DNA of 32,000 nt from Planctopirus limnophila DSM 3776 (GCF_000092105.1 NC_014148.1:2610001-2642000), one strand, 5' to 3'; shown: positions 1,086 through 27,518, counted from the stretch's first letter. Program-made: numbers and translations. Notes: generated by a model from the letters alone, not told the origin.

Positions 1086-2489
1086 ATGGCCAGTCTCTTC
1101 AAACCCACATATACCCGAAAGAATCCGAAAACTGGCGAGCGTGAACTCGTCAAATCCAAGAAGTGGTACGGGCAATATCAGGATGCCCATGGGCAGCGTG
1201 TTCGCGTGCCGTTGTCGACCGACAAAGCCGCCGCGAATGCCATGCTCAATGAGCGTGTCAAACGGGTTCAAAGAGGCGAAGCAGGGCTCTGTGACCCATT
1301 TGAAGATTCCCGGCGACTACCGATCATCGAGCACCTCGAAGCCTTCATTCAATCACTCGAAGTGAAGCGTGTTTCCTCGAAACATCTGGAAGTCTCGCGA
1401 GCACGTCTCACCAAGATCTTCACCGAATGCAAATTCCACTCCTGGGATGACCTGAGCCACGGGAAATTCAATCACTGGCTGCTGGAGCTGCGCAAAAGGG
1501 GAGTGTCTGCCCGCACTGGTAACTACTATCTCCAAGTCTTGCGGCAGTTCTGCAACTGGATAAAACGCGATGGCCGCGCCCCTTCCAATCCGTTCGAGTT
1601 CGCCGAACCAGTTCGCGTGCTCGATGGCGAGACAACTCGGCCTCGTCGCTCAGCAACTCCTGGTGAGATCGAGCGACTGATCACAGCCACCCGCACTGGC
1701 AAAGACTTCGGCGTTCCTGCGGAAGATCGTGCGATGCTTTACCTGGTGGCCTATGCGACTGGTTTACGAGCTTCTGAGCTCGCCAGTCTGACTTGCCACA
1801 GCTTCGACCTAGGCAACTCTTCTCCATCTGTCACAGTCGAAGCCGGTTATTCAAAGCGACGACGAAGGGATGTCTTGCCGCTCCCATCGTTCGCCGTTGA
1901 AAAACTCATGGGTTGGCTGGCCGTCAAACGATCTGTGAACCCTGCAATAAAACTTTGGCCTGGGCGATGGCCGAACAAAGCCGCATTGATGCTTTCGCGT
2001 GACCTCGAAGCAGCCGGCATCGACGCTAAAGATTCGCAAGGGGCGGTACTCGACTTCCATTCTCTCCGGCATACGTTCATTACCCAACTGGTCGCCGGTG
2101 GAGTGAAACCGAAGGTGGTGCAGAAATTGGCCCGTCATTCGACAATCCGCCTCACGATGGATCGTTACGCCCACCTGGACAATTCAGAGATTCAGGAAGC
2201 AGTTACCAGTCTTCCAGTTCCTCAATCTCCAGCGACTGCTCGCGCCCAGGAAGACAAATTTCTTGTACCGCCGCTTGTACCAAATCTTGCACAAACACCT
2301 GTCCCAGCCTGTCCTGTGGTGTCCGCGGGTGGCAGTGGAGTGTTGGAAGCACCCCGGAAATGCGAAACGCCTAACTCCTCTGTGAATGAGAAGTTAGGCG
2401 CTGATTGTCCGCCGGTGGCCACGATTGGCCGCAAAAGGCGCCGCCCGGATTCGAACCGGGGATGGTGGATTTGCAATCCACTGCCTTAG
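1086..2489 (+). CDS. Tyrosine recombinase / phage-type integrase
   Basis: 467 aa. Catalytic residues are visible: GLRASELASL (Arg), HSLRHTF (His-x-x-Arg), ARHSTIRLTMDRYAH (His, Tyr nucleophile). N-terminal SAM-like core-binding region (YYLQVLRQFCNWI). The last ~100 aa are a Pro-rich tail. The final 18 codons are antisense to the tRNA-Cys gene, so the functional C-terminus is uncertain. Confidence 0.9.
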   Translation: MASLFKPTYTRKNPKTGERELVKSKKWYGQYQDAHGQRVRVPLSTDKAAANAMLNERVKRVQRGEAGLCDPFEDSRRLPIIEHLEAFIQSLEVKRVSSKHLEVSRARLTKIFTECKFHSWDDLSHGKFNHWLLELRKRGVSARTGNYYLQVLRQFCNWIKRDGRAPSNPFEFAEPVRVLDGETTRPRRSATPGEIERLITATRTGKDFGVPAEDRAMLYLVAYATGLRASELASLTCHSFDLGNSSPSVTVEAGYSKRRRRDVLPLPSFAVEKLMGWLAVKRSVNPAIKLWPGRWPNKAALMLSRDLEAAGIDAKDSQGAVLDFHSLRHTFITQLVAGGVKPKVVQKLARHSTIRLTMDRYAHLDNSEIQEAVTSLPVPQSPATARAQEDKFLVPPLVPNLAQTPVPACPVVSAGGSGVLEAPRKCETPNSSVNEKLGADCPPVATIGRKRRRPDSNRGWWICNPLP

Positions 2490-5717: not shown

Positions 5718-7259
5718 TTAGCGTGCGTATTCAATGACTCGTGTCTCACGCAGGACAGTGACTTTGACTTCCCCAGGGTAGGTGAGAGATTGTTCAATGG
5801 CTGTTGCCAGATCGCGGCACAAACGGGCCGCTTCGCGATCATTCACATCCTGCGGATTCACAATGACGCGGATTTCCCGGCCCGCCTGAACTGCATAAGC
5901 CTGTTCGACACCTGGAAATCCACAGGCAATCGATTCCAGTTCTTCCAGACGTTTGACGTATCGCTCAAGCGACTCGCGGCGTGCACCAGGTCGAGAAGCC
6001 GAACAGGCATCGGCAGCCGCCACCAGAACTGTGTAGATGTAATCAGGACGAATATCGTCGTGATGGCCGCGTGCGGCATGGATCACCTCGGGACGTTCGC
6101 CATACCGCTTGAGCAATTCGGCACCCACAGCCGGGTGACCACCTTCCATTTCATGGTCGGCGGCCTTTCCAATATCATGCAGGAAGCCGCAGCGGCGGGC
6201 GAGATTGCCGTCCAGCCCCAGTTGCTCTGCCATCATGCCTGTGAGTGCAGAAACTTCAATCGAATGCCGCAGTACGTTCTGGCTGTAGCTGGTACGGAAG
6301 TGAAGTCGCCCCATGAGTGCGAGCAGTTTCTCGTGGAGGTTAGGAATCGTGGCTTCCTGTGCAGCCTCAGCTCCCTGGCGAAGAATATATTCTTCCATTT
6401 CCTTCTGAGTTTCGAGCACGATTTCGTCGATGCGCGTGGGGTGCATGCGACCATCTTGAATCAGTTTAATCAGTGCGAGCTTGGCTGTTTCCCGGCGAAC
6501 ACTGTCAAAAGCTGAAACAACGACCACACCCGGTGTGTCATCAACAATCACATCGACTCCGGTGGCCTTCTCAAAGGCGCGAATATTGCGGCCTTCGCGA
6601 CCAATGATTCGCCCCTTCATTTCATCATTCGGGATGTCAATTGTGGAAACCGTTGATTCGGAAGTATGGGCTGAGGCGTACCTCTGAATGGCCATACCAA
6701 TGATCTCCCGAGCCTGCTTTTCGCTCTGGGCTTTCACTTCGGCCTCGTGTTTCATTACGAGAGCGCCAGTTTCGTTCTTGAGTTCACGTTCGAGCTGATC
6801 CAGGAGCATTCGGACGGCAGATTCGCGATCCAGGCCGCTGATCTTGTAGAGTTGTTCCTGCTCCTGCTTGAGAATTTTTTCGACTTCTCGATCACGAGCT
6901 TCCACCACTTTGGCGCGTTCTGCCAACTTGGTTTGAGTGGTCTCCAGCATTCTTTCTCGCTTGGCGAACTCGTCCTGGCGCTCGCGAATCGTGGCTTCTT
7001 TTTTATCCAAAGCCCGCTCCAGCTGTCGAAGTTCATCTCGCTGTGCTGAAAGCTCACGGTCAAGTTCTTCTCGACGCTTAAGAAGTTCTTCTTTGGCAGA
7101 GAGCTCGGCAGCTTTTCGCAAGTTCTCGGCGTCACGCTCGGCCTGAGCGACGATCTCTGCACGGGTTTTGAACGCAGTACCACGAACAACTCGTTCAGCG
7201 AAGTATCCCGCTGCTGCTCCGAGTAGCAACCCGAGAATGCCTGCAATGACTATTTCCAC
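5718..7259 (-). CDS. rny: Ribonuclease Y
   Basis: N-terminal TM helix ([20 protein letters not shown]) and a long Glu/Lys/Arg coiled coil. KH domain ([33 protein letters not shown]). HD domain (RHSIEVS...GFLHDIGKA...HH.DI). The probable start is GTG at 7259; the track ORF extends to 7358 through non-conserved sequence. Confidence 0.92.
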
Positions 7260-8083
7260 TTGGCAGCCCTTAAATTTTGTCGGCTGACAAATGAATTCTT
7301 GAATGAAAAAGGCGGAGAAACGAATCAGATCTGTCTGAAGGGAACCAAAGACAATCAATCACCACTCATTGGAGCTTCAACAGTCATTGATGATTTTCGA
7401 CGATATAGGAACCAGCTGATCATTTCACAAACACAGTTTTTACAACGAGTTCATCAATCCGATCTGCCTGAGTCGGGAATACCAACTCTTACAATGAGAC
7501 TTCCATAACCGAACAGAAATCTGGAACTGCTTACCAAATCAAACTGTGTGCCTTCTTCAAGCATTCACAACGATGACAGTCAATTTCCAAAATGATCCAT
7601 CTTTTCGGCAGGTTGTTCTCGGCGTAAGTCAGATCTGAGCCATGATTTGCCAGCGGACTTCGAAATAACTGGTAGAAGTGCGTCGAGAAACTGCCATACG
7701 GTGTTCTTCTCAATGAGTGGAGGCTGATCACCTGAAACTGTAACTGGAGTTTCAAATACGATTCCCCACAACACACTCAAATCACGCCAGATATGGCCCC
7801 TTCAATCGTCAAAAATTTTCCGAGATTCGTTTACTGCCCCCACTGCATTCAACAATCCATCTGCAATCGCTTTATCTGGTTGATGACTGCTTGCGAACAC
7901 ACGTTGCAAGCATTTACAAATCAAACACTTACATTGGTTACTGAGGATTTCAGAAAACCACCGTAAGCCTTATAGTAACAGGTCGGCACGACGAATCAAA
8001 TCGCCGTAGCGATCAACAGTTTCAACATTCTCAAGCCCCGTCAGGCTCTTCCCACGTCTGGAGCCGGGCACTGGCGATGCTTA

Positions 8084-13727: not shown

Positions 13728-14612
13728 GTGCGACGTTGTCGCAGTAAAGTCTTCATCGTGCCCACACCTGCCGATCGCATCCATCTGGCCCTCGAAATCC
13801 TTGTCGAAGAGTGGACCCCATTCATTCGACAGGAATTGAGCAAGTCGTATGGACATCGAGTCGAAGAAGTCATTCTTGCGCAGATTCGCGGTGATCGAAA
13901 CATGGCCTCTGCCAGATTTTCCGATCCGCTGTCAGATCCCCATATCTTGCTGAATGTGGTCTGGGAACAGTGGAATCACTGCTTTCGCCATCAGTTGGGA
14001 ATCTTTGAACGGAGCCTGATCAGCGAACTGCGTGAGTTTCGTAATCAGTTAGCTCATCAGTCGTTTCTCACTGAAGACGATGCCTACCGAGTGCTCGATA
14101 GCGTTCAGCGGTTATTGGTGGCGACAGGCCACACCCAGCGGGCGACTCAGTTAGAAGATGAAAAGGTCGATGCACTCCGGCAGAAATTCGGGCATCGCGT
14201 CAATCGCGAACTGGCCAGAATTCGGTTCAATCGACGGCGTCTGCTCGACATCGCACTCTACAGTCTCTGCTGCTTTGCATTGGTCACAACGTTGTGGAGC
14301 TTTCTGTGGGAGCGTCACTGGCTGGCCACATTACTGCTGATTGCCTTCGTGATCTTTACCTTTGGTTACTTCATCTATCAGCGTCTGAGTGCTGCAATTC
14401 CGGTCTTTGGCGTCCATGAATGTGCTCATTGCCGCAGGGTCATCTACACAGAATCTTGCCCGTACTGTGAACAATCGCCTGCACATCGGCATAGACGAGC
14501 TCAAATTCTCGATCCTCGGGAAGAGGCTGATGCGACGCTCGCTCACGAGACACTGGAAATGATTGACCAGAGTGCAAATCCTCTGGAACTGATTTCCAAA
14601 GTTCCGCGCTGA
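13728..14612 (+). CDS. Swt1-like HEPN domain protein fused to two TM helices and a C-terminal CxxC..CxxC zinc ribbon
   Basis: HEPN Rx4H motif ELREFRNQLAHQ (R at 14040). It is preceded by ...LEILVEEWTPFIRQELSKSYG...DPHILLNVVWEQW.., which is typical of Swt1-type HEPN. TM helices are LLDIALYSLCCFALVTTLWSFLW and WLATLLLIAFVIFTFGYFIY. Then CAHCRRVIYTESCPYC. The start is uncertain (GTG 13728 or GTG 13758). Confidence 0.7.
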   Translation: MRRCRSKVFIVPTPADRIHLALEILVEEWTPFIRQELSKSYGHRVEEVILAQIRGDRNMASARFSDPLSDPHILLNVVWEQWNHCFRHQLGIFERSLISELREFRNQLAHQSFLTEDDAYRVLDSVQRLLVATGHTQRATQLEDEKVDALRQKFGHRVNRELARIRFNRRRLLDIALYSLCCFALVTTLWSFLWERHWLATLLLIAFVIFTFGYFIYQRLSAAIPVFGVHECAHCRRVIYTESCPYCEQSPAHRHRRAQILDPREEADATLAHETLEMIDQSANPLELISKVPR

Positions 14613-14642: not shown

Positions 14643-15014
14643 TTACTGCGCACTCTGAATATCGGGACGCAACTTCTTGGCTTCTCCCAGGTAGACATGC
14701 ACAATTTCACTGGGTGCCTTACTTGAGTTCACATGCAATAACACACGAATACAACGTGGCAACGCCTGGGGAACTGCGATCTCTGATGCGCACAGGAGTG
14801 GCACTTGCCTCATCCCGAGAGCGCGAGCCGCCTCGGCCGGAAATGTCGAGGTGAGATCGGGGGTTGTCGTGAAGATCGCTGAAACGATTTCGTCGAAATC
14901 GACGATTTCATTCTGCTGAAGCAGTTCTGCCAGGAGTTCTCGAGTCGCAGCCAGAAGCAGTTCAGGATTATCGCAATCCACACAGGTTGCACCACGAATT
15001 CCTCTGACGGACAT
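14643..15014 (-). CDS. aroH: Monofunctional chorismate mutase, AroH class
   Basis: [18 protein letters not shown]...[18 protein letters not shown]...CIRVLLHVN...[13 protein letters not shown] is colinear with Bacillus AroH (IRGIRGATTV..., TPDL..VFPAK, CIRVMM, HVYL..LRPD). 123 aa from ATG 15014. The track ORF (to 15167) adds 51 non-homologous residues. Confidence 0.85.
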
Positions 15015-15067
15015 CTCAGCCCACTCCCTCTCGAACTCGCTTGAACATTCGATCCGCAGACATTCAA

Positions 15068-15094
15068 TCAATCGTTGCAGATCGTAACGATTGA
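15068..15094. promoter_or_regulatory. Perfect 9-bp inverted repeat in the aroH / arsR divergent intergenic region (candidate operator)
   Basis: TCAATCGTT (15068-15076) and AACGATTGA (15086-15094) are exact reverse complements with a 9-bp spacer. The repeat lies 54 nt upstream of the aroH start and ~190 nt upstream of the arsR-like start. Confidence 0.25.
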
Positions 15095-15282
15095 CCATCC
15101 TGCCCGACAGCCACCCACAGGCTTGTTCAGCAATTCTTGCCGCAGCCAGCATGACAACCTTGTTCAACTTGTCATTGCCAAACTTTTTCTTACGATTTTG
15201 TCATCTTTCTAACGCCGATCAACGTATCTACAGTCGTAACAGTAACCCGTACACAGATTCAAACATCGAAAGGTGTCGATCG

Positions 15283-15837
15283 ATGCCGTCCTCGACTGTT
15301 GCTACCAGGGAAATGGCTGAGCTTCTTGGAGTCCTGTCGCATCCCTGCCGCGTCCAGATTGTGGAAGAATTGCGCGACAGTGAACGTAATGTCAATGCTC
15401 TTCAAGAGTTGCTAGGAATCAGCCACTCCGGTGTTTCACAACACCTGGCACTCTTAAGAACGCGCAAATTGCTCAAAGAACGCCGTTCAGGCAGGCATGT
15501 TTATTACCGGCTGGCAAATCCCCGGCTCGCCGAGTGGCTGAGAATGGGAAATGTGTTCCTCGATCAACCCACACCCGATCAAATAGAGAACTCCGGGACA
15601 AGTAGCAATGCATCCACAAATGCCAGTTCGTCGATGAGTTGGGAGGCACACGTTCTGCATCAGAAGGTCGTCCCTCAGCCGGAGCCATCACGATCTAATG
15701 GAATGTCAGGCGATCGCTTGCCGGAACAGACTTCACTCGGTGAACATCGCAATTTCAATCCAACAGATTATTCAGAAACGGTTGTGGTCGACAAACCGAT
15801 GGATCTGTCAGACTCCTCCACGACCCAGCCGACATAA
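15283..15837 (+). CDS. ArsR/SmtB-family winged-helix regulator with a ~90-aa Ser/Asn/Pro-rich C-terminal tail
   Basis: LLGVLSHPCRVQIVEELRDSERNVNALQELLGISHSGVSQHLALLRTRKLLKERRSGRHVYYRL is a canonical ArsR HTH. ATG 15283 is preferred over the upstream track start at 15091. First gene of the ABC-HlyD-TolC cluster. Confidence 0.8.
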   Translation: MPSSTVATREMAELLGVLSHPCRVQIVEELRDSERNVNALQELLGISHSGVSQHLALLRTRKLLKERRSGRHVYYRLANPRLAEWLRMGNVFLDQPTPDQIENSGTSSNASTNASSSMSWEAHVLHQKVVPQPEPSRSNGMSGDRLPEQTSLGEHRNFNPTDYSETVVVDKPMDLSDSSTTQPT

Positions 15838-15868
15838 TTTGCATCAAAATTGAATCTCCTGGAGAGCA

Positions 15869-18166
15869 TTGGTTGTGAGCAGATTATCATCTTCGACATC
15901 GAGAGCTGAGCCGGGGGAACTCCGCCACGCGGAGACTGATCGAAACGACTACGGAGATGAAACCGAGTGCTTCTCATCCGGAACGAGTCAGGGTGCGGCT
16001 TTAGCCGGCGCACTGGTCGAATTCGGTAGACTCACCGAAAATCCGTGGGAACCTCTGATCGTTCAACGTGAACTCGAAGCAGCCGCCCGGTGCTGGCAGG
16101 GTGACTTCGACAGTAAGTGGTGGAAGTGGGCCATCGAAGTTGCCAGGTCTCATGGTTTGGCCATCCGGCTCATGGATCTGACGATCAGTGAAGTTCATGC
16201 ACTTGCGAAACATGGTGGTATCGCCCTTTGTCGCACTGAACCAATTCCAACTGTGCCAATTCCAAACGCCTCAGCTCCATCTTCGAAAGCCGCACCAGAA
16301 CTGGCTGAGAGGCTGTTCGTCGTCTCGGGACGAAAAAAAACGCTGGCCATGGAGTTTGCTAATGATCTTTACGGCAAAGATCTGCCCTGGCTCAATTTCG
16401 TCCAGAGTTTTCCACAGGTTGCTGTGCGCTGTGTCGTTTTTGAGCCCAATATCGATGGGTTGGGTGCCGGCCACGAGCACCACCAGCCTCCCTGGAAACG
16501 TCTGCTGCGCATGATCGCGCCAGAAAAAAATGAAATCTGGACGATTTTCCTGATGGCATGTGCGGCTGGCCTGTTATCAGTCTCGGCTCCATTGGCGGCT
16601 CAACAACTCGTCCGCGCGGTGACTTTTGGTGGTGTCTTCCAGCCAATTATCGTTCTGAGCATTATCCTTTTGGGGCTGTTAAGTCTGCTCGGCGCCTTCC
16701 AGATTCTGAAGATCTACATCTCAGAAGTGATCCAGCGCCGCCTGTTCACGCGCATTACTGCGGATCTGGCATGGCGGCTTCCTCGTGTCAAAGAATCGGA
16801 ATGGATGCATCATGACGGACAGGAACTCGTCAATCGGTTTCTGGAAGTGGTGACACTTCAGAAAGTCATCAGCAGCCTGCTGGTGGATGGATTAGCGATC
16901 ATTCTGGCGACAATTGTCGGTATGACATTGATGGCGTTCTATCATCCGTTTCTTCTCGGTTATGACCTTGTCCTGATTGTGCTGTTGTCGATCATCATTT
17001 TGACAATGGGGCGCGGAGGGGTGCGAACTTCCATCGAAGAATCCAACAATAAATACATGGCACTAGCCTGGTTCGAAGAACTGGTTCGCGTCCCCGCAAT
17101 CTTCCGTACTCCTGATGGTGCTGCTCTGGCTTGGCAACGAAGCGATGCGCTATGCACACGTTATCTCAATGCGAGGCAAAGTCACTTTACGATTGTTCTC
17201 AGGCAATACATTGCTCTAGCGATACTCCAGGCTGTGGCAGCAACCGCCCTGCTGGGTCTGGGTGGTTATCTCGTACTTCGAGAACAATTGACACTCGGCC
17301 AACTGGTTGCTGCCGAACTGATCGTCGCCACTATTGTGGGTTCGTTTCTGAAACTGGGCAAGCACCTTGAAGAGTGGTTCGATCTCATGGCAGCGGTGAA
17401 TAAACTGGGCCATCTGTTCGACCTGCCTGTGACCCAGCAAAGAGGGGTCTTGTTGCCCGAATCACGCAAACCGATCGCTCTCGATATGCGAAATGTTTCG
17501 TGGGGCCATTCGCCCGGTGTCGGTCATTGGATGACTCCCCATTTGACATGTGCTGTGACTCCGGGTTCATCGCTGGCCATTCTGGATAATCAGCCGGAGC
17601 ATCGGTCAAAAATTCTCTCGGCCCTGGCAGGTGAGGCCTACGAATTCGAGGGAATCATCGAGCTCGATGGTTTACCACTGAATGATCTTCGTAAAGATCT
17701 TGTCAGATCACAGGTGGCTTTCGTCCAGATGCCTGAGATTCTGTCTGCTTCCATTGCCACCAACGTCCATTTGCATCGACCCGACGTCAGTGATCAGACC
17801 GTCAAGCGACGACTCGAAGATGTCGCACTCATGGCTCGAATTGAAACCTTACACGGTGGTATCCATACCGAACTATCGGCCAAAGGCGACCCGCTTTCTT
17901 CAACAGAGCAGATGCAACTGATGCTCGCACGAGCCATGGCAGGCTCTCCGCGTCTGCTTCTGATTGACGGATGGCTGGATGGCTTGCCCGACCACTTGCG
18001 GCAGCGTTTACTGGGCGTCCTCTTTGCGCCAGACAGAACGTGGACCACGATCATCGCCACCTCCCGGCCCGATATTGCCGCGCTGTGCGACCAGACCATC
18101 GAGATGGACAGTGCCGAATCTCGACCTTTGGAAGCACCTCGTCAACCATCCTTACCTGCGACCTAG
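15869..18166 (+). CDS. ABC exporter-like protein: C39-like domain (no catalytic Cys) + 6-TM type-1 exporter domain + degenerate nucleotide-binding domain
   Basis: The domain order matches HlyB/PCAT-type exporters. In the NBD, the Walker A position reads LAILDNQPEHRSKIL (canonical GxxGxGKS/T). The signature reads LSSTEQ (LSGGQ). Walker B reads LLLIDG (hhhhDE). The H-loop reads IIATSR (His replaced by Ser). The Q-loop Gln is retained (VAFVQ). The start is TTG 15869 or GTG 15875; there is no in-frame ATG for >100 codons. Confidence 0.85.
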   Translation: MVVSRLSSSTSRAEPGELRHAETDRNDYGDETECFSSGTSQGAALAGALVEFGRLTENPWEPLIVQRELEAAARCWQGDFDSKWWKWAIEVARSHGLAIRLMDLTISEVHALAKHGGIALCRTEPIPTVPIPNASAPSSKAAPELAERLFVVSGRKKTLAMEFANDLYGKDLPWLNFVQSFPQVAVRCVVFEPNIDGLGAGHEHHQPPWKRLLRMIAPEKNEIWTIFLMACAAGLLSVSAPLAAQQLVRAVTFGGVFQPIIVLSIILLGLLSLLGAFQILKIYISEVIQRRLFTRITADLAWRLPRVKESEWMHHDGQELVNRFLEVVTLQKVISSLLVDGLAIILATIVGMTLMAFYHPFLLGYDLVLIVLLSIIILTMGRGGVRTSIEESNNKYMALAWFEELVRVPAIFRTPDGAALAWQRSDALCTRYLNARQSHFTIVLRQYIALAILQAVAATALLGLGGYLVLREQLTLGQLVAAELIVATIVGSFLKLGKHLEEWFDLMAAVNKLGHLFDLPVTQQRGVLLPESRKPIALDMRNVSWGHSPGVGHWMTPHLTCAVTPGSSLAILDNQPEHRSKILSALAGEAYEFEGIIELDGLPLNDLRKDLVRSQVAFVQMPEILSASIATNVHLHRPDVSDQTVKRRLEDVALMARIETLHGGIHTELSAKGDPLSSTEQMQLMLARAMAGSPRLLLIDGWLDGLPDHLRQRLLGVLFAPDRTWTTIIATSRPDIAALCDQTIEMDSAESRPLEAPRQPSLPAT

Positions 18167-18278
18167 AATGCCAGATCGAGCTTCATTTCCAGATAAGAAG
18201 TTCCAGATGTCCTGACTGAATAACGGACCAGACCTGCATCACGAACATCATCCACGATTCGCTCGGAAGGAGTGAAAC

Positions 18279-19724
18279 ATGGCTTCCACACAAATCAGTA
18301 CCACACCCCAAGGCACAATTGTGCCCGCTGGTGGGCATCATGATCAGCATGACACTACCCTGGGGCTATGGAACGTCGGCGAAACGTGGCAAGCCCAGAA
18401 CTTTCCGGCACTCCAACTGGCCCAGCCGATCAGTACGATTCGCTGGATCTCGACAGCACTATTGTGGGCGTTGCCCATCAGTCTGATTGTCATGATGTTC
18501 GCCCCCTGGCAGCAATCCGTTGTCGGTTCCGGGCGAGTGATCACTTATGATCCCAATCATCGCCTGCAGGAAATCGATGCTCCCATCGGAGGTCGCATCA
18601 CGAATATTCGTGCCGAGCTGGTGGAAGGGGCGATCGTCAAAAAAGGCGAAGTCCTCATGGATATTGAGGTCATCGACTCGGCTTTGATTTTTCGCCTCGA
18701 AGAACAGTTCATGGCCACTCAGCGTAAACTCGAGACCGAAAAGACCATTGCCATTGCCTACGAACAACAGGTTCAAGCGTTTGAAGCCATTCGCAACCAG
18801 ACGGAACTTGCCCAGGATGAATTCATTAAAATGGCTGGGCAGAAGTTGCTTGCTGAGCAGCAGAACCTGAAAGCAGCGACCGCCGCCTATGAGCAGGCCG
18901 AGAAGGATCGCATTCGACGCATTCAGCTCTTTGAACAGAAGGTGGAATCTCGATACGAAGTCGAAATTGCTGAGCGAAAAGCTCAAGAGGAACAGGCGAA
19001 ACTGGCACAGGCCAATGCTTATGTTGAAGCAGCGAAGAGCGAGCTGTCGGCTAAAGAGGCCGAGCGACTTTACAAGATTCGTGAGGCGATCACCAAGATT
19101 GACTCAGCACGGGCCGTTTATCAGAAGTCGTTGGGAGATATCGCCAGTACCGAGAAGGAGATCGCCGATATCCAAGCTAAACAAAAGTTGCAAGTACAGT
19201 CGGTGGTAGCCCCGATTGATGGGTATGTCCTGCGACTGACAAACTTTCAGGGAGGAAAAATTATTTCGGCAGGCACGCCGCTTTTGGAACTCGTTCCATT
19301 AACAGCAGATCGCGCTGTCGAGATCAAGGTCGATGGAAACGATGCACCGCTGGTCGCCTCACTTTCTAAAGATGGCCAGCATCGCAAAGTCAGACTGCAA
19401 TTTGAAGGCTGGCCTGCGGTTCAATTTTCCGGCTGGCCTTCAGTCGCAGTCGGTACCTTCGGTGGTGTTGTCGCTGTCGTCGATTCGATGGATGATGGAA
19501 TTGGTAAATTTCGAGTGCTGGTATTGCCTGATCCGGATGAAACAAGGCCGTGGCCCACAGCCAATGTCTTGAGGCAAGGGATTCGGGCCAGAGCCTGGGT
19601 GTTGCTGGATCGGGTCACGATCGGGCAGGAACTCTGGAGACAACTCAACGGATTCCCACCCGCTATTCAACTGGATGATTATAAGAGTTCAACGGACGAC
19701 AAACTTCTTCGAGGGAAAAAATGA
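18279..19724 (+). CDS. HlyD-family membrane fusion protein (type I secretion / bacteriocin-export type)
   Basis: Single N-terminal TM (WISTALLWALPISLIVMMFAPW). Lipoyl-like halves (IDAPIGGRITNI...GEVLMDIE and VVAPIDGYVLRL) flank a ~170-aa coiled coil. GGAAGGAG lies 7 nt upstream of the ATG. Confidence 0.85.
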   Translation: MASTQISTTPQGTIVPAGGHHDQHDTTLGLWNVGETWQAQNFPALQLAQPISTIRWISTALLWALPISLIVMMFAPWQQSVVGSGRVITYDPNHRLQEIDAPIGGRITNIRAELVEGAIVKKGEVLMDIEVIDSALIFRLEEQFMATQRKLETEKTIAIAYEQQVQAFEAIRNQTELAQDEFIKMAGQKLLAEQQNLKAATAAYEQAEKDRIRRIQLFEQKVESRYEVEIAERKAQEEQAKLAQANAYVEAAKSELSAKEAERLYKIREAITKIDSARAVYQKSLGDIASTEKEIADIQAKQKLQVQSVVAPIDGYVLRLTNFQGGKIISAGTPLLELVPLTADRAVEIKVDGNDAPLVASLSKDGQHRKVRLQFEGWPAVQFSGWPSVAVGTFGGVVAVVDSMDDGIGKFRVLVLPDPDETRPWPTANVLRQGIRARAWVLLDRVTIGQELWRQLNGFPPAIQLDDYKSSTDDKLLRGKK

Positions 19725-21574
19725 CGCGATCCGGACAAGCATGGATGCTTGTTGGTTGCCTGGTGATAGCCGGATGCTCAACCGCTCGTACAAGTGTGGT
19801 TCGCTCCATCTCACCAGCATCGTCGTCGGTCGAGAAATCGACCGTCGCCAATCACAAGATCTCCGAAGAAAACACCACCGGCAAAGAGACCAGTTCTCGA
19901 TACACAACCAACAAAACTGCCTTCCCACCTGAAATTCCAGAAGATCCGGTGCCTGCGGAAGAGACCTCATCCACGATTCAACTTGCCAATTCTGAAGTGC
20001 TGGATGCAGAACCTGCAGGTGCAACGGCTGCTGAGCAGACCGCTGCTTTACAGGGAGCATCGTCCCCACCAGGTCAAGTCAGCACACCTCCCGCCGGTGG
20101 AGGCGATGAGTTTATGGAGGGATCCTTGCTCCCCGGAAAGATCCGCCAGGAGATTCCTCCCAGCCCCGGGAATGCCGATGAGATTCCTATCGTAGGTGAT
20201 GAGCGAGTCAGTCCACCCCTGGTACTCAACAGTGTCATCGACTCGGTCTACATGTCGTTTCCTCTTTTAAGGAATGCACTTTATGGCCGCAATATTGCCA
20301 ATGGAGCCAATCTCGCTGCCCAGGGAGCTTTCGACCTCAAGCTGAATGCTGATTTGAATAACCAGCCCCTGGGTTACTACCAGACGTATCGGAATGGTGT
20401 CGATATTGCCCAGCCCGTGCTCCAGAATGGTGGAGAAGTGATTGCCGGGTATCGCGCGGGTCGTGGTAACTTTGAACCATGGTACGGAAATCGCGAAACC
20501 AACGATGGGGGCGAGTTCATGGCTGGCCTGGCGATCCCACTTTTGCAGAACCGTGCGATTGATAAACGCCGCGCTGAACTCTGGATTACTCAGGTTGGTC
20601 AATCAAAAGTCGAACCAGAGATTAAAACCCAGCTCCTGCAATTTATTCGTGATAGTACAATTGCCTATTGGGAATGGGTGGCCGCAGGGCAGGGGCTGCG
20701 AGTGGCTCGTGAGCTGCAGGCACTGGCACTGGATCGAGATCAACAGATCCGCGCGACAGTCCAGGAAGGTGATCGTCCCGAATCAGACATTATTGATAAC
20801 CAGCGTTTAATTGTTGCCAGACAGGTCAAGCTGATTGAAGCGGAACAAAAGCTTCAAAGCTCGGCCGTCAAGCTCTCACTCTATTTGAGAGATGCTGCTG
20901 GCAATCCCTTTATCCCTTCCAACAGCATGCTGCCTGCGAGGTTTCCAACTCCGATGCTGGTGACACCCGAGGTACTGGAAGCCGATATTGCCTTCGCTAC
21001 CTCTCGCCGGCCGGAATTGCTGGCACTCGATTTCGACCGTCAGCAATTGTCTATCGAGTTATTAAAGGCACAGAACGAACTGTTACCCACATTGGGTGCC
21101 CATGTCCTGGCCAAAAAAGATGTCGGCGGGCCAACCAGCTCGATCAATGATAAAGGTCCCTTCCAGGGAGAAGCCGGCTTGCAGTTTACCGTTCCTCTGC
21201 AACGTCGAAACGCCAACGGCAAAATCATGATGGTCGAAGGGAAGCTGGCTCAGAATATGGCCAAACGCCAATTCACGGCTGATAAAATTTCCGTCGAAGT
21301 TCGCACTGCCGTCATTGCCCTGGAAAATGCCTATCGTGCCATTGGTCAGGCCAGTGCTTCTGTCCGTCTCAACGAAGAGATGCAACGATTTGAAACCATT
21401 CGATTAAATGAGGGCGCGAGCGATCTCTTGAGATTGAACCTGCGCGAGCAGGCCACCTTTGATGCTCGTGTTCAGGAAGTTCTCGCCCTGCTAGGTTACT
21501 TCGCCGCAGAGGCTGACTATAAGGCCGCAACTGCGGCTGAACTCCCCGAAGAAATCCTGGTTCCCGCCAACTAA
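19721..21574 (+). CDS. TolC-family outer membrane factor, lipoprotein form with a long low-complexity linker
   Basis: Lipobox LVIAGC after a signal peptide (MTRSGQAWMLVGCLVIAGCST). A ~150-aa Ser/Thr/Pro/Glu/Ala-rich region follows. Then come two TolC-type repeat halves (LRNALYGRNI..., RRPELLALDFDRQQLSIELLKAQNELLPTL...). The start overlaps the HlyD stop (ATGA). Confidence 0.8.
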   Translation: MTRSGQAWMLVGCLVIAGCSTARTSVVRSISPASSSVEKSTVANHKISEENTTGKETSSRYTTNKTAFPPEIPEDPVPAEETSSTIQLANSEVLDAEPAGATAAEQTAALQGASSPPGQVSTPPAGGGDEFMEGSLLPGKIRQEIPPSPGNADEIPIVGDERVSPPLVLNSVIDSVYMSFPLLRNALYGRNIANGANLAAQGAFDLKLNADLNNQPLGYYQTYRNGVDIAQPVLQNGGEVIAGYRAGRGNFEPWYGNRETNDGGEFMAGLAIPLLQNRAIDKRRAELWITQVGQSKVEPEIKTQLLQFIRDSTIAYWEWVAAGQGLRVARELQALALDRDQQIRATVQEGDRPESDIIDNQRLIVARQVKLIEAEQKLQSSAVKLSLYLRDAAGNPFIPSNSMLPARFPTPMLVTPEVLEADIAFATSRRPELLALDFDRQQLSIELLKAQNELLPTLGAHVLAKKDVGGPTSSINDKGPFQGEAGLQFTVPLQRRNANGKIMMVEGKLAQNMAKRQFTADKISVEVRTAVIALENAYRAIGQASASVRLNEEMQRFETIRLNEGASDLLRLNLREQATFDARVQEVLALLGYFAAEADYKAATAAELPEEILVPAN

Positions 21575-21602
21575 TGAGTCAACAAAGCCCCCCATAGTCG
21601 AA

Positions 21603-22679
21603 TTAAAAGGTTCCCGATTTGATGGCAGGGGGATTTTGCGAACCTGCCGCGCCACCTGCCTCTGGAACATCTAAACCGGCTCCTTTAAGCAGTGCCGCCG
21701 CATGAGTGGCCAACTGTGTTTCAGGATAATCAGTGACCATCTTTGATAATTGTTCACCCAGCTTTTCCTTAAGCTGGGGCTTGGCATTGGCCAGCTGTCG
21801 CTCAATATTCTGAATCTGCTTAAGCGCAGCCAGCCCAGATTTCACCTGGGGATCTTTCGGCAGATCTTTCTTTAACTTGGCAGCACCATCTGAAAGCGGG
21901 TAGCCCTTAAAAGTATCGTTCAATTTGAGCAGTAGCTCATAAGCCTTGAACTTGTTGCCCGCTTCGGCGGAAGCCAATGCTTCGTTTTCTAATTCCTGCC
22001 GCTCGGCATCGACCACTGCGAGCATTTTTTCTGCCACCGATTTGACCTCAGGGCGATTGGAAAGGGCCGCCTTTTTCAGTGGCTGGGCAACACCGCCGTA
22101 AGCACCAAATTCAACCTGTTGCCACAGAGGAATCATTTCCGGTGGGACTTCCGCACGTTCGACTTTCCATGTGGCACCCTGGGCGAGTCCCTTGATGGCA
22201 TCGCTGTAGTCGTCGTAAGGCAAGCTCTCAATTTTCCCAGCAGCGCTGATTCCGCGAATCTGGCGAATGTTCTGCAGGCTGATTTCTCCCACGGAACTGC
22301 TGGCGAATTCTTTTTCAAAGCTGCGATCCGTATCGACGATGATCGGCCAGTTGATTTTTACCTGCTGAGCATATCGCTCGACTTCCGCTCGCTGTGTTCC
22401 AGAGTTCACTGCGATGAAGACAACAGGCAGCTTTTCATTCGATTTAGCAGCCGAAAGGATATCGGGCCAGGCGGCCCGACATTTGGGGCAGGTTTCTTCG
22501 AAGAACACCAGATAAACTGCTTTCCCACGAAGCTGTTCGTAGCTCAATGGCTGTGAATTGACCCACTGACCCGGATTTTTAGGCAAGGGGGGCTGGGCCA
22601 GAGCCTTACGAGAATCAGCCACCAGCAGAACGAATACGAAGGCCAACAGCACACCGGTCCAACCGGCCTTACTGGTCAT
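21603..22679 (-). CDS. Secreted thioredoxin-fold (TlpA/redoxin-like) protein with a helical-repeat C-terminal domain
   Basis: Signal peptide MTSKAGWTGVLLAFVFVLLVA..ALA. GKAVYLVFFEETCPKCRAAWPDI carries a CxxC in a thioredoxin-fold context. The C-terminal ~170 aa are Ala/Lys/Leu-rich helices (TPR-like). ATG 22679 is preferred over the track start at 22706. Confidence 0.7.
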   Translation of the reverse strand: MTSKAGWTGVLLAFVFVLLVADSRKALAQPPLPKNPGQWVNSQPLSYEQLRGKAVYLVFFEETCPKCRAAWPDILSAAKSNEKLPVVFIAVNSGTQRAEVERYAQQVKINWPIIVDTDRSFEKEFASSSVGEISLQNIRQIRGISAAGKIESLPYDDYSDAIKGLAQGATWKVERAEVPPEMIPLWQQVEFGAYGGVAQPLKKAALSNRPEVKSVAEKMLAVVDAERQELENEALASAEAGNKFKAYELLLKLNDTFKGYPLSDGAAKLKKDLPKDPQVKSGLAALKQIQNIERQLANAKPQLKEKLGEQLSKMVTDYPETQLATHAAALLKGAGLDVPEAGGAAGSQNPPAIKSGTF

Positions 22680-23040
22680 GTTTTTTGCGATCATCGACGG
22701 ACTCACTCACACCTGTGGACACGGAAGGACATCAACAGTCGCGTTCTTTGCGGCATCTACAACATACGGACATCTCGCCCGATTCATCGACAGCCATTGA
22801 TCCAACAACGACCTCTGTATCATTTCGTTGCCCGGTGAACATCGCAAACACAATTCTCAAAAACCATCCATTTCGCAAAGACTCGGCATGTGAGTCACTT
22901 GCGGAGATCTCAGGCAGCAGTTGTGATGCTGTTACCGTATCAAGCTGAGAATCCCGGATACTCGTGCTGGTCAGTTCTGGAAAGAATACAGCAGCAAGCT
23001 CACGGCACTCAGCATCAGCAGCACTCAAGGAATCAACTCG

Positions 23041-25647: not shown

Positions 25648-26043
25648 TTAGGCGTTCTCTTCCTGTGACAGCACGAAGTTCTTGAAGCGGATTCGGTCAC
25701 GCTCGCCATCTCCAATGCTGGAGAAGAGTTCAGCCATAATGCGGTGGAAATGCTTCTGGCGCACACTGTAGAAATTGTGCTTACCATCGCGACGGGCTTC
25801 AATCAGACCGGCTACTCGAAGTAAAGCCAGATGATGGCTGACTGCTGGCTGGCTCTGACCCAGGCGCTCGCAGAGGGCAGTCACATGCAATTCCTGATCT
25901 TTCATCAGATACATCAGGATACGCAGGCGAGTTTCATCGGCCAACAGCTTAAAGACCTGAACGAGGTCTTTCTCAAGCTGAGTCGACAGATCGGGGAAGG
26001 ATGAACCTTTTTCGACCAAAGGTTCGGCAACGTTCGAAATCAT
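25648..26043 (-). CDS. ArsR/SmtB-family transcriptional regulator
   Basis: FKLLADETRLRILMYLMKDQELHVTALCERLGQSQPAVSHHLALLRVAGLIEARRDGKHNFYS is a canonical ArsR winged HTH. Confidence 0.85.
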   Translation of the reverse strand: MISNVAEPLVEKGSSFPDLSTQLEKDLVQVFKLLADETRLRILMYLMKDQELHVTALCERLGQSQPAVSHHLALLRVAGLIEARRDGKHNFYSVRQKHFHRIMAELFSSIGDGERDRIRFKNFVLSQEENA

Positions 26044-26071
26044 TATATTCGCTCTCTACTTAAAAGGACCA

Positions 26072-26113
26072 TGACTGAGTGACGCCGATCCATTCGGCGG
26101 GTGAAATCAGTCA
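26072..26113. promoter_or_regulatory. Nested inverted repeat just upstream of the arsR-like start codon (operator or 5' UTR hairpin)
   Basis: TGACTGA (26072-78) and TCAGTCA (26107-13) enclose CGCCGA (26083-88) and TCGGCG (26094-99). The element lies 29-70 nt upstream of ATG 26043 (minus strand). Confidence 0.3.
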
Positions 26114-26735
26114 GGTCAAAATTTTACTATTCCAAATCCATCAGCACCCAGAGTTAACTTGGTGCCTGGAATCAAACACATCGATCAAAAAACCAGAACC
26201 ACAATCTCAGTTTTCACACCGATTTCGATGAACCCACACAACAATTTATATTGATCTGTTGAGCTCACCTGCAGCAATTCAGCAAGTCTGTTCAAACTTA
26301 TTCAGCATTTCCTGAGACCATTGCCTTACAGTTGCTCAAAACACTTGCAAGGATTTAGCGATTTCAGATTATCCCATTACATGAAATCTGCCAAACGAAC
26401 ATCAGTATTCCTAAATATGTCGCATGACTGATTGTTTCTCCAACGTATTTTGCAACCTGGAGGACAGTCCGTCAACAACACTCTCGCCACAACAAGCATT
26501 TCTCCCAAAAGTGGTAGAAATGTAAATCTCTGTCGTGATTGATGTTAAAACACCTTCATAAACGATCACTGAATTTGTGACAGATCATCTTTTCTGTTCC
26601 GACATCGAACTTTAACAGCAGATTGTGTGCCACACATGTGGACACTCTGTTGTGTGGATATGTTCGCTGCCTGTTATGATGCCCTTCTCATGGTCTTTTC
26701 ACGAGGTTTTTCTTCCCCGGTGGAGCACGTCAGCG

Positions 26736-27518
26736 ATGACAAATATGCCTGAAAAGAAAGCATTCTGCAGCTTACACGGGCTGAATGCAGTCATCACCGG
26801 GAGTTCATCCGGTATTGGAAAGGCAATTGCTTTGGAACTTTCTCAAGCAGGGGCCACCGTCGGCTTGCACACCCGAAAGTCGATCAATTCACTTGAGCAA
26901 ATCCGAAAGACAATCCACTCGCAAGGAGGAACAACGCATATTTTTCAGGCAGACCTGCGGAACAACGATGCGGCCGAAACCTTGGCCGAACAGGCATGGT
27001 CAGAAATGGGATCTATTGATATCTGGATCAATAATGCCGGCGTGGATCTCCTCACGACCGAAGAAGCTCGCCTCCCGCCAGTCAATAAACTTGATCTTTT
27101 GCACTCCGTTGATGTGCGCGCTACTTACCAGCTTTCCCGCGAGATCGCCACGCGTATGAAATCACGGGGCAGGGGCTGCATTATCAACATCGGCTGGGAT
27201 CAGGCAGATCGCGGTATGGAGGGAGAAAGCGGTGAACTTTTCGCAGCAGCCAAGAATGCTGTCATGGGTTTTACCCGCTCGATGGCAGTCAGTTTTGCCC
27301 CTGAAGTCCGTTTGAATTGTGTCGCTCCGGGATGGATAAAAACCGCCTGGGGAGTGACTGCCAGCCCCGTTTGGCAGGAGCGGGTCATTCGTGAAACTCC
27401 CCTGAAACGATGGGGATTGCCAGAGGATATTGCCCGTGCTGTCCGATTTCTGGTCAGCGAGGAAGCCTCTTTTATCACGGGACAAGTGATAAACGTCAAC
27501 GGCGGGGCCATCCGCTGA
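26736..27518 (+). CDS. Short-chain dehydrogenase/reductase-fold protein with non-canonical active-site positions
   Basis: The Rossmann motif VITGSSSGIGKA and NNAG are intact, as are PG.I.T and the C-terminal ITGQVINVNGG. At the expected Ser and Tyr-x3-Lys positions the sequence reads NIGW and FAAAK. ATG 26736 is preferred over the track start at 26625. Confidence 0.85.
   Translation: MTNMPEKKAFCSLHGLNAVITGSSSGIGKAIALELSQAGATVGLHTRKSINSLEQIRKTIHSQGGTTHIFQADLRNNDAAETLAEQAWSEMGSIDIWINNAGVDLLTTEEARLPPVNKLDLLHSVDVRATYQLSREIATRMKSRGRGCIINIGWDQADRGMEGESGELFAAAKNAVMGFTRSMAVSFAPEVRLNCVAPGWIKTAWGVTASPVWQERVIRETPLKRWGLPEDIARAVRFLVSEEASFITGQVINVNGGAIR

Follow-up and report, generated by a model that had tools for sequence, protein, structure and literature searches.

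What can an ABC half-transporter contribute to a type I secretion-like operon when the motifs for ATP hydrolysis appear to have gone from its nucleotide-binding domain (NBD)? The question is raised by four consecutive genes on the plus strand of Planctopirus limnophila DSM 3776 (GCF_000092105.1), located at positions 15283-21574 of a stretch of 32,000 nucleotides (NC_014148.1:2610001-2642000) that was analysed as a whole and is called the window below. ABC exporters are defined by ATP hydrolysis at one consensus site at least, and the exceptions known so far are engineered mutants or proteins that shed the NBD altogether. An original prediction, made by reading the sequence alone, had described an arsR-ABC-HlyD-TolC operon with an ABC subunit that appears catalytically dead. 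The follow-up was carried out by computation throughout, and all conclusions are of that kind. They indicate that the locus belongs to a large subfamily of HlyB/PCAT-like ABC half-transporters that had not been described before, in which a predicted non-catalytic ABC component serves a tripartite system of the type I secretion system (T1SS) kind; motif loss is a hallmark of this large family and not a peculiarity of one locus.

The ABC gene (15869-18166, +) encodes an HlyB/PCAT-architecture half-transporter of 765 amino acids (aa) in an intact frame, with a non-catalytic NBD that has no P-loop. Four catalytic motifs are replaced at exactly the coordinates that had been predicted. The Walker A remnant reads DNQPEHRSK (residues 573-581; 17585-17611, +), all three P-loop glycines and the Lys being replaced. 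A degenerate signature, LSSTEQ (17894-17911, +), stands in place of LSGGQ. Walker B (LLLID) is followed by Gly701, so that the catalytic Glu is lost (LLLIDG, 17954-17971; 17954-17989, +, with the D-loop region DGLP), and the H-loop position is occupied by Ser732 (18062-18064, +), the His being lost. The canonical D-loop Asp position is Pro707, and D704 is aligned with the Ser of SALD. Where a competent NBD carries GxxGxGK[ST], LSGGQ, D-E and the H-loop His, this protein has DNQPEHRS, LSSTE, D-G and Ser; at the Q-loop column it retains Gln, unlike 96% of its family. Misalignment of the motifs was ruled out by two independent alignments to canonical NBDs. In a phmmer alignment with ABCB10, 'ildnqpehrskils' was placed under 'lvGpsGsGKStvls', 'LSsteq' under 'LSggqk' and 'lllidg' under 'lllDEa'; in an alignment of the family profile with the NBDs of P-glycoprotein (P-gp), the family 'tGR' (T-G/S-R) fell under 'AHR'. 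No canonical motifs were found elsewhere in the ABC protein in the alignments to ABCB10 and the P-gp NBDs, in agreement with the view that the subunit is not a conventional ATPase. The window protein is without a functional Walker A, catalytic base, H-loop and signature, and is predicted to be unable to bind or hydrolyse ATP canonically.

In its overall build the protein is a recognisable, very divergent T1SS/PCAT-type exporter. The Pfam model ABC_tran gave 31 bits, with a match that opens at profile position 24, past Walker A, and ABC_membrane gave 24.6 bits, under its gathering threshold. The best NCBIfam models (NHLM_micro_ABC1, LssB, PrtD and HlyB) scored 83-112 bits against cutoffs of 510-853: TIGR03796 (NHLM_micro_ABC1) ranked top with 112 bits, and the T1SS models lay 5-8 fold under their cutoffs (TIGR03375 LssB, 100/693; TIGR01842 PrtD, 96/510; TIGR01846 HlyB, 82.9/725 bits). 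An AlphaFold2 (AF2) model, built on a 93-sequence alignment, reached a pLDDT of 82.7 and a pTM of 0.83. The NBD was modelled with a pLDDT above 90 throughout, former P-loop included, and the recognisable NBD fold that had been claimed is thereby borne out. When the full-length model was searched with Foldseek, the top matches were PCAT1 and HlyB over about 715-727 columns (HlyB 8dck_A and 7sgr_A: E about 1e-19 over 715-723 columns), compared with ~560 columns for exporters free of the N-terminal domain (N-domain). In both the AF2 model and the Foldseek matches, the six-helix transmembrane domain (TMD) of a type I exporter is followed by an NBD fold.

The protein is one of many. Homologues at ~40% identity and ~500 bits are abundant; a scan with one genome per species gave relatives in at least 581 genomes, and an exhaustive profile search gave at least 150 clusters (50% identity) above 675 bits. 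Among the matches listed, most are from Planctomycetota (Planctomycetaceae, Pirellulaceae, Isosphaeraceae and Kuenenia); others listed are from Methylococcales (Methylomonas, Methylotuvimicrobium buryatense 5G and a Bathymodiolus symbiont) and from metagenome-assembled genomes (MAGs) labelled Myxococcota, Verrucomicrobiota and Acidobacteriota, some of which labels may be binning errors. Motifs were counted in 255 family members having an NBD, none of which has a fully canonical set. LSGGQ is kept in 6, the Q-loop Gln in 9 (Arg in 185), the H-loop His in 27, the catalytic Glu in 42 (Gly instead in 161) and the D-loop Asp in 57, which amounts to a loss in 78% of members. The Walker A Lys is kept in 208 and the Walker B Asp in 253; Walker A is complete (GxxGxGK[ST]) in 172, and Walker A, D-E and the H-loop His occur together in 13 members. 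A protein of Gimesia alba (P0032) is an example of a relative with Walker A intact.

Changes were counted by Fitch parsimony on a quick neighbour-joining tree, and minimum numbers of at least 25 (Walker A Lys), 22 (catalytic Glu) and 16 (H-loop His) were obtained. Because so many of the changes on this tree are independent, the catalytic apparatus appears to be eroding repeatedly and independently. By the motif counts, the loss of the H-loop His, the Q-loop Gln, LSGGQ, the D-loop Asp and, for the most part, the catalytic Glu is family-wide and would be ancient. Loss of Walker A is clade-specific in Planctopirus and a relative of 78% identity, and recurs independently in many other lineages; the Planctopirus clade (the window, loci L001 and L004 and the 78% relative) has many counterparts that have likewise come to lack a P-loop. 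An aromatic residue in the A-loop is present in 70% of members where Walker A is intact and in 40% otherwise (Fisher p = 3e-4, uncorrected for phylogeny). This co-variation between the A-loop aromatic and an intact Walker A suggests that most members still make use of nucleotide binding but not of hydrolysis. A relaxation of the NBD after loss of Walker A was considered and set aside, the effect being small (identity ratio 0.73 vs 0.77) and confounded by phylogeny.

The same counts bear on the proposal that the family consists of unorthodox nucleoside triphosphatases (NTPases), in which the role of the lost catalytic groups is taken by other residues, for instance the Arg that is typical of the family at the Q-loop column (185/255). 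Walker A, the Walker B Asp and the A-loop aromatic are indeed present in most relatives. The window protein has neither P-loop glycines nor the Lys, its Q-loop column holds Gln and not Arg, and at least 25 independent changes of the Walker A Lys are unexpected if NTP turnover is essential, so we regard this proposal as very unlikely.

Decay of the gene is addressed by substitution rates. Ratios of nonsynonymous to synonymous substitution (dN/dS) were estimated by the Nei-Gojobori method against the 97%-identical locus of Planctopirus ephydatiae. For the whole ABC gene the ratio was 0.061 (N-terminal domain, 0.15; TMD, 0.026; NBD, 0.089), and against the 78% relative it was 0.057. The other operon genes gave 0.02-0.05 for the adaptor (0.022 vs P. 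ephydatiae), 0.07-0.10 for the outer-membrane factor (0.095 vs P. ephydatiae) and 0.30, the highest of the four, for ArsR. Relatives at 97-98% identity carry the altered motifs unchanged, and the 78% relative has similar ones. The ABC gene, NBD included, is under strong purifying selection and is not a pseudogene. The concern that the lesions might be strain-specific, raised with the original prediction, is answered by degenerate motifs throughout the family and by purifying selection in the orthologues. That the locus is a decaying pseudogene, or an ordinary T1SS with strain-specific lesions, is thus refuted as far as dN/dS, conservation and family-wide motif states go, and we give it next to no credence: the 765 codons are intact, dN/dS is 0.06 (NBD, 0.09) and the same substitutions recur across phyla. 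On its side stands one Pirellulaceae MAG (L051 9977-12142), in which the family ABC gene is split into open reading frames (ORFs) of 464 and 253 aa, either a frameshifted pseudogene or an assembly error.

Constraint is greatest in the membrane part. The six-helix ABC-exporter TMD (aa 206-525; 16484-17443, +; AF2 helices 208-517) is the most conserved part of the protein: in the 93-sequence alignment, columns at least 90% conserved make up 38% of the TMD, 13% of the NBD and 1% of the N-domain. In usual ABC exporters the NBD is the conserved part, and by these column counts the polarity appears to be reversed here. Seven polar residues of the TMD (Gln446, Gln478, Glu483, His359, Glu286, Lys495 and Asp505) are 98-100% conserved and exceed all catalytic residues of the NBD except the Walker B Asp. 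Glu483 (17315-17317, +) is family-specific and near-invariant (E in 249/255 members). The TM5-TM6 segment finds its best PDB-chain matches in HlyB and PrtD, and there Glu483 is aligned with an Asn of HlyB ('AFNML') and a Ser of PrtD. From AF2 helix boundaries and hydropathy it is inferred to sit inside the TM6 helix.

Gene order ties this membrane component to an export duct. Synteny was examined in a sample of 83 loci, and partners were sought within 10 kb in these loci and the window (84 sources). The adaptor gene lies directly downstream of the ABC gene in 69 of the 83 loci, and the gene for the outer-membrane factor (OEP/TolC family; OEP below) adjoins that of the adaptor in about 61, sometimes upstream; in Methylococcales its place is occupied by a divergent OEP. 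The ABC-adaptor-OEP synteny is near-universal and crosses phyla, and a co-encoded HlyD adaptor and TolC-family factor are what a T1SS calls for. In one protein of the representative library (P0252, 1202 aa), a family ABC protein (aa 8-725) and an HlyD_3 adaptor (aa about 1042-1106) are naturally fused. The window protein is the inner-membrane partner of the adaptor/OEP duct.

It could still be one half of an obligate heterodimer, in which a dead subunit is joined by a canonical ABC half-transporter encoded elsewhere and one working ATP site results, as in TM287/288, TmrAB and BmrCD. Exporters with one degenerate site are common (PMC7756269), and the partner scan was confined to the loci. Known partners are adjacent genes, however, and neither two half-transporter genes side by side nor lesions gathered in one composite site were found. 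Each of the 83 loci has a single family ABC gene, and the window contains no second ABC gene. All ORFs of the 84 sources were scanned with a regular expression for Walker A, signature and D-E; of six that were flagged, two are family members with other motifs degenerate and four are unrelated, non-conserved neighbours. A linked partner ATPase was rejected on these grounds, canonical unrelated ABC ORFs lying near only 4 of the 84 sources. In the asymmetric exporters with one degenerate site (TM287/288, TmrAB, BmrCD, TAP and CFTR), the same substitutions are seen, i.e. of catalytic Glu, H-loop His and signature, and the degenerate site binds ATP without turnover and has a structural role (PMC7756269). 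There, one chain carries the degenerate Walker B and H-loop and its partner the degenerate signature, which leaves one of the two sites canonical (PMC7756269). These are heterodimers or pseudo-heterodimers that keep a consensus site, whereas the present protein would form a homodimer with none, and lacks a P-loop besides. The degenerate Walker A, Walker B, H-loop and signature of the window protein all belong to a single chain, which would cripple both composite sites whatever the partner. The original prediction had offered three options, namely an ATP-independent scaffold or gated conduit, an obligate partnership with an unlinked ABC subunit, and a regulatory or sensor derivative; the second is disfavoured by these lesions and by the lack of a linked partner in 83 loci, and we think it unlikely.

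No substrate gene had been seen in the cluster, and that observation now extends to the family: no RTX, GG-leader or other conserved cargo-like gene was found among the linked genes of the 83 loci or the window. Linked cargo was rejected after clustering of the neighbours, which gave only regulators, a small HPF-like ORF and housekeeping synteny (phosphoenolpyruvate carboxylase, PurE/PurK). Recurrent regulators are a divergent LysR (26 loci) and ArsR (Planctopirus and a few others); MarR or Ada/AraC neighbours are single cases. Since there is no linked cargo and the regulators (LysR, ArsR, MarR, AraC) are of the efflux-pump type, a small molecule or an ion is a likelier substrate than a protein.

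The lack of cargo would equally suit a system that transports nothing, with ABC protein, adaptor and OEP forming a static trans-envelope tether or scaffold, or with the ABC protein acting as a sensor or regulator as SUR does for Kir6. Lost energy-coupling motifs and an NBD retained as a folded module are compatible with such a role. Against it, the strongest constraint falls on pore-lining TM helices, polar TM5/TM6 residues included, a complete adaptor and open-ended OEP duct are kept, and the linked regulators are those of efflux pumps; we consider it improbable.

The N-terminal cytoplasmic domain (about aa 38-200; 15980-16468, +) is remotely C39/papain-like in fold, and conservation is lower here than anywhere else in the protein. 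The domain is absent in about 18 of 262 family members (~7%). Modelled in isolation, it reached a pLDDT of 81, and Foldseek returned weak matches to the peptidase domains of PCAT1 and ComA (TM score about 0.5, E 0.02-0.14) and none with E below 1e-3. The ABC protein gave no match to Pfam C39 (PF03412). No Cys or His of the N-domain is conserved across the family, and hence no C39 Cys/His dyad was found. Of the earlier claim of a C39-like domain devoid of its nucleophile, the lack of a conserved catalytic Cys stands; the fold assignment holds only in part, and the domain is best called a remote, non-catalytic C39-like domain, as far as the model allows.

Between this domain and the elbow helix and TM1 lies a His-rich linker (HEHHQ, aa 202-206; 16472-16486, +). 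In the 25 aa preceding P208, His makes up 10% family-wide, compared with 2.5% protein-wide. At least three His are present in the linker of 95 of 246 members and at least five in 42; (HG)n or HDH runs occur in many, and P0242 has His at 11 of 25 positions. By this enrichment the linker may be a cytoplasmic metal-binding site, a weak hint at a divalent metal substrate. The cytoplasmic N-tail of the adaptor is His-rich as well (GGHHDQHD, aa 18-25; window 18330-18353). It was rejected as family-wide support for metal binding, only 8 of 67 adaptors having such a tail, and is lineage-specific.

Two known systems are closest in build. With the T1SS of HlyB/HlyD/TolC and PrtD (PDB 7SGR, 8DCK, 5L22), the locus shares the three-component gene set and its order, and the ABC protein shares the architecture: a C39-like domain at the N terminus that is devoid of Cys, like the C39-like domain (CLD) of HlyB, then a six-helix TMD and finally the NBD at the C terminus. 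HlyB also ranks with the best structural matches. Unlike those systems, the Planctopirus protein has lost catalytic Glu, H-loop His, signature GG, D-loop Asp and Walker A, no linked RTX or C-terminal-signal cargo was found, TM6 has a Glu where HlyB has Asn, and the TMD is more conserved than the NBD. The likeness to PCAT1, ComA and NHLM_micro_ABC1 consists of the best NCBIfam match (TIGR03796), the top Foldseek match (PCAT1) and the nearest folds of the N-domain. PCATs differ in that the present locus has no catalytic Cys/His, no Pfam C39 match, no GG-leader peptide genes and a non-catalytic NBD, and forms a diderm, tripartite system with an OEP.

With moderate confidence, and by a little more than an even judgement, we favour a homodimeric, hydrolysis-independent inner-membrane component, either a gated facilitator or a proton-coupled exporter, whose NBD is kept as a scaffold. 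A strongly conserved machine that lacks these residues would have to operate in a manner not known for ABC exporters. The ABC protein would dock as a homodimer to the adaptor/OEP duct; a homodimer is preferred because no linked partner is present and both kinds of lesion lie in one chain. Translocation would be independent of ATP hydrolysis and centred on the TMD, with facilitated flux of the substrate along its own gradient into the duct (a gated facilitator or conduit). Alternatively, it might be driven by the proton gradient via the conserved polar TMD residues Glu483, Gln478, Gln446 and His359. The NBD would be kept for dimerisation and coupling. The cycle is probably still gated by ATP binding in the majority of relatives, which have an intact Walker A and A-loop; in the Planctopirus clade it would be nucleotide-free, with control exerted mainly at the level of expression, by the ArsR-family repressor that is co-transcribed.

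Translocation without hydrolysis is made plausible by two precedents. A D-loop mutant of TAP is a passive, nucleotide-gated facilitator (PMC4242082); it is engineered, and the present family likewise lacks the D-loop Asp in 78% of its members. SbmA is a proton-driven transporter with the ABC-TMD fold and no NBD (PMC8442886, PMC13316013). As a precedent of mechanism only, no sequence membership being claimed, SbmA/BacA (SLiPT) differs in having no NBD, in importing and in not being tripartite, whereas the present family combines a constrained NBD with an adaptor/OEP export duct. A more specific version, which we find possible but rather doubtful, places the family, as a natural evolutionary intermediate, between ATP-driven ABC exporters and SbmA-like secondary transporters, and sees in it a tripartite proton-energised pump. 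Coupling would then run through a cluster of TM6 Glu483 with Gln478, Gln446 and His359, and the NBDs would be a relic for dimerisation and gating, ATP-gated in most lineages and nucleotide-free in Planctopirus.

Several points weigh against the hydrolysis-independent homodimer. By their motifs, the 13 of 255 members with Walker A, D-E and His may include active ATP hydrolysers, and function may differ within the family. A partner scan confined to the loci leaves room for an unlinked canonical partner. The conserved polar residues of the TMD could serve adaptor docking or substrate binding instead of proton coupling. Finally, in the operon's ArsR protein the classical alpha3N and alpha5 metal sites of SmtB and ArsR are not obvious, so the metal hint comes from the His enrichment.

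Full-text literature searches found no description of this ABC family. The only Planctomycete 'T1SS-like' report that was found concerns an unrelated module without an ABC protein (PMC4452313). It describes an M50-peptidase/HlyD/SecA_DEAD module of Planctomycetes and Verrucomicrobia, for which the SecA_DEAD ATPase was proposed as the motor (PMC4452313). Like the present system, that module is a non-canonical one with HlyD and OEP, and the phyla of the two overlap; it does without the usual ABC energiser. The gene content is unrelated and none of those genes is present in the window, so an identity with the module of Kamneva et al. was rejected; it is a different system. Members of the present family carry generic database names ('HlyB', 'peptidase domain-containing ABC transporter', 'ABC transporter ATP-binding protein'), and the automatic labels 'HlyB' and 'ABC transporter ATP-binding protein' would be functionally misleading for these genes. 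A widespread family under strong selection that appears to have no consensus site in the homodimer and to have lost the P-loop repeatedly, and is nevertheless connected to a duct of the T1SS type, would offer a natural experiment on the separate contributions of ATP binding, ATP hydrolysis and the NBD scaffold to translocation. It is possibly a living intermediate between primary and secondary transport, and would represent a new envelope-spanning export class in Planctomycetota, anammox bacteria and methanotrophs.

The genes around the ABC gene are organised as had been described, and domain searches agree with the ORFs of the four-gene operon. The first gene (15283-15837, +) encodes an ArsR/SmtB-family winged helix-turn-helix (HTH) regulator of 184 aa, matched by Pfam HTH_5 and HTH_20 and by the NCBIfam model for ArsR/SmtB winged-HTH metalloregulators (NF033788; 79.9 bits, cutoff 55). 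Met65 of a longer ORF that opens at 15091 was taken as its start, in agreement with the annotated 184-aa gene of P. ephydatiae; the upstream portion of the longer ORF overlaps a divergent chorismate-mutase gene. The protein has a low-complexity, Ser/Thr/Pro-rich C-terminal extension of ~95 aa (window 15556-15837, aa about 92-184). Its stop codon (TAA, 15835-15837) is separated by 31 nt from the ABC gene on the same strand, which starts with TTG at 15869 and is preceded by GGAGAG at 15861-15866, 3 nt upstream. A scan of 14900-21800 for promoters and terminators gave counts no higher than shuffled sequence, and no ArsR operator palindrome was found when one was looked for.

The HlyD-type membrane-fusion adaptor (18279-19724, +; 481 aa) consists of the cytoplasmic N-terminal tail with GGHHDQHD, one TM segment and a long coiled coil. 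It was matched by Pfam HlyD_3 (PF13437; 42.3 bits, cutoff 22.2) and scored below the subfamily cutoff of type_I_hlyD (TIGR01843; 60.2 bits, cutoff 208.65). Its stop codon overlaps the start of the OEP gene as ATGA (19721-24); the overlap had been predicted and is read directly from the sequence. The OEP/TolC-family outer-membrane factor (19721-21574, +; 617 aa) is a lipoprotein (lipobox VIAGC) with a low-complexity linker of ~170 aa ahead of the OEP repeats. Pfam OEP (PF02321) gave 62.3 bits against a cutoff of 22 in two matching stretches, as expected for two repeats, and TIGR01844 gave 27 bits against 225.

Some neighbours are of separate interest. A small, divergent HPF/YfiA (Ribosomal_S30AE)-like ORF of 104-136 aa immediately precedes the ABC gene, in the same orientation, in ~13 loci (L080 9605-9961, L011 6989-7372, L041 2845-3168, L007 9583-9924, L072 1517-1831 and L042 9082-9432 among them) and is absent from the window. 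A D-x-NGP-x-GG-x-DK-x-C motif is conserved in it, and its score stays under the TIGR00741 cutoff; cargo, chaperone and coincidence are candidates for its role. Two genes upstream of the operon, the ORF at 13728-14612 (+) matches a HEPN_Swt1-domain protein of P. ephydatiae (L001 7871-8725) and has a C-terminal TM segment and a CxxC...CxxC motif. Downstream, a convergent gene for an AhpC/TSA-redoxin-domain protein with a long C-terminal helical extension (21603-22706, -) leaves a gap of 28 nt to the OEP stop codon, a synteny kept in Planctopirus relatives only. A second compact ArsR-family regulator (25648-26043, -; 131 aa) is encoded ~4 kb downstream of the operon and is conserved in L001, L004 and L084. 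Near the left end of the window, a tyrosine recombinase/phage integrase gene is located at 1086-2489 (+), and three blocks (1-1000, 47.5% GC; 7001-8000, 45.6%; 26001-27000, 44.4%) lie 6-8 points under the window mean; integrase and low-GC blocks may be the remnant of a mobile element unrelated to the operon.

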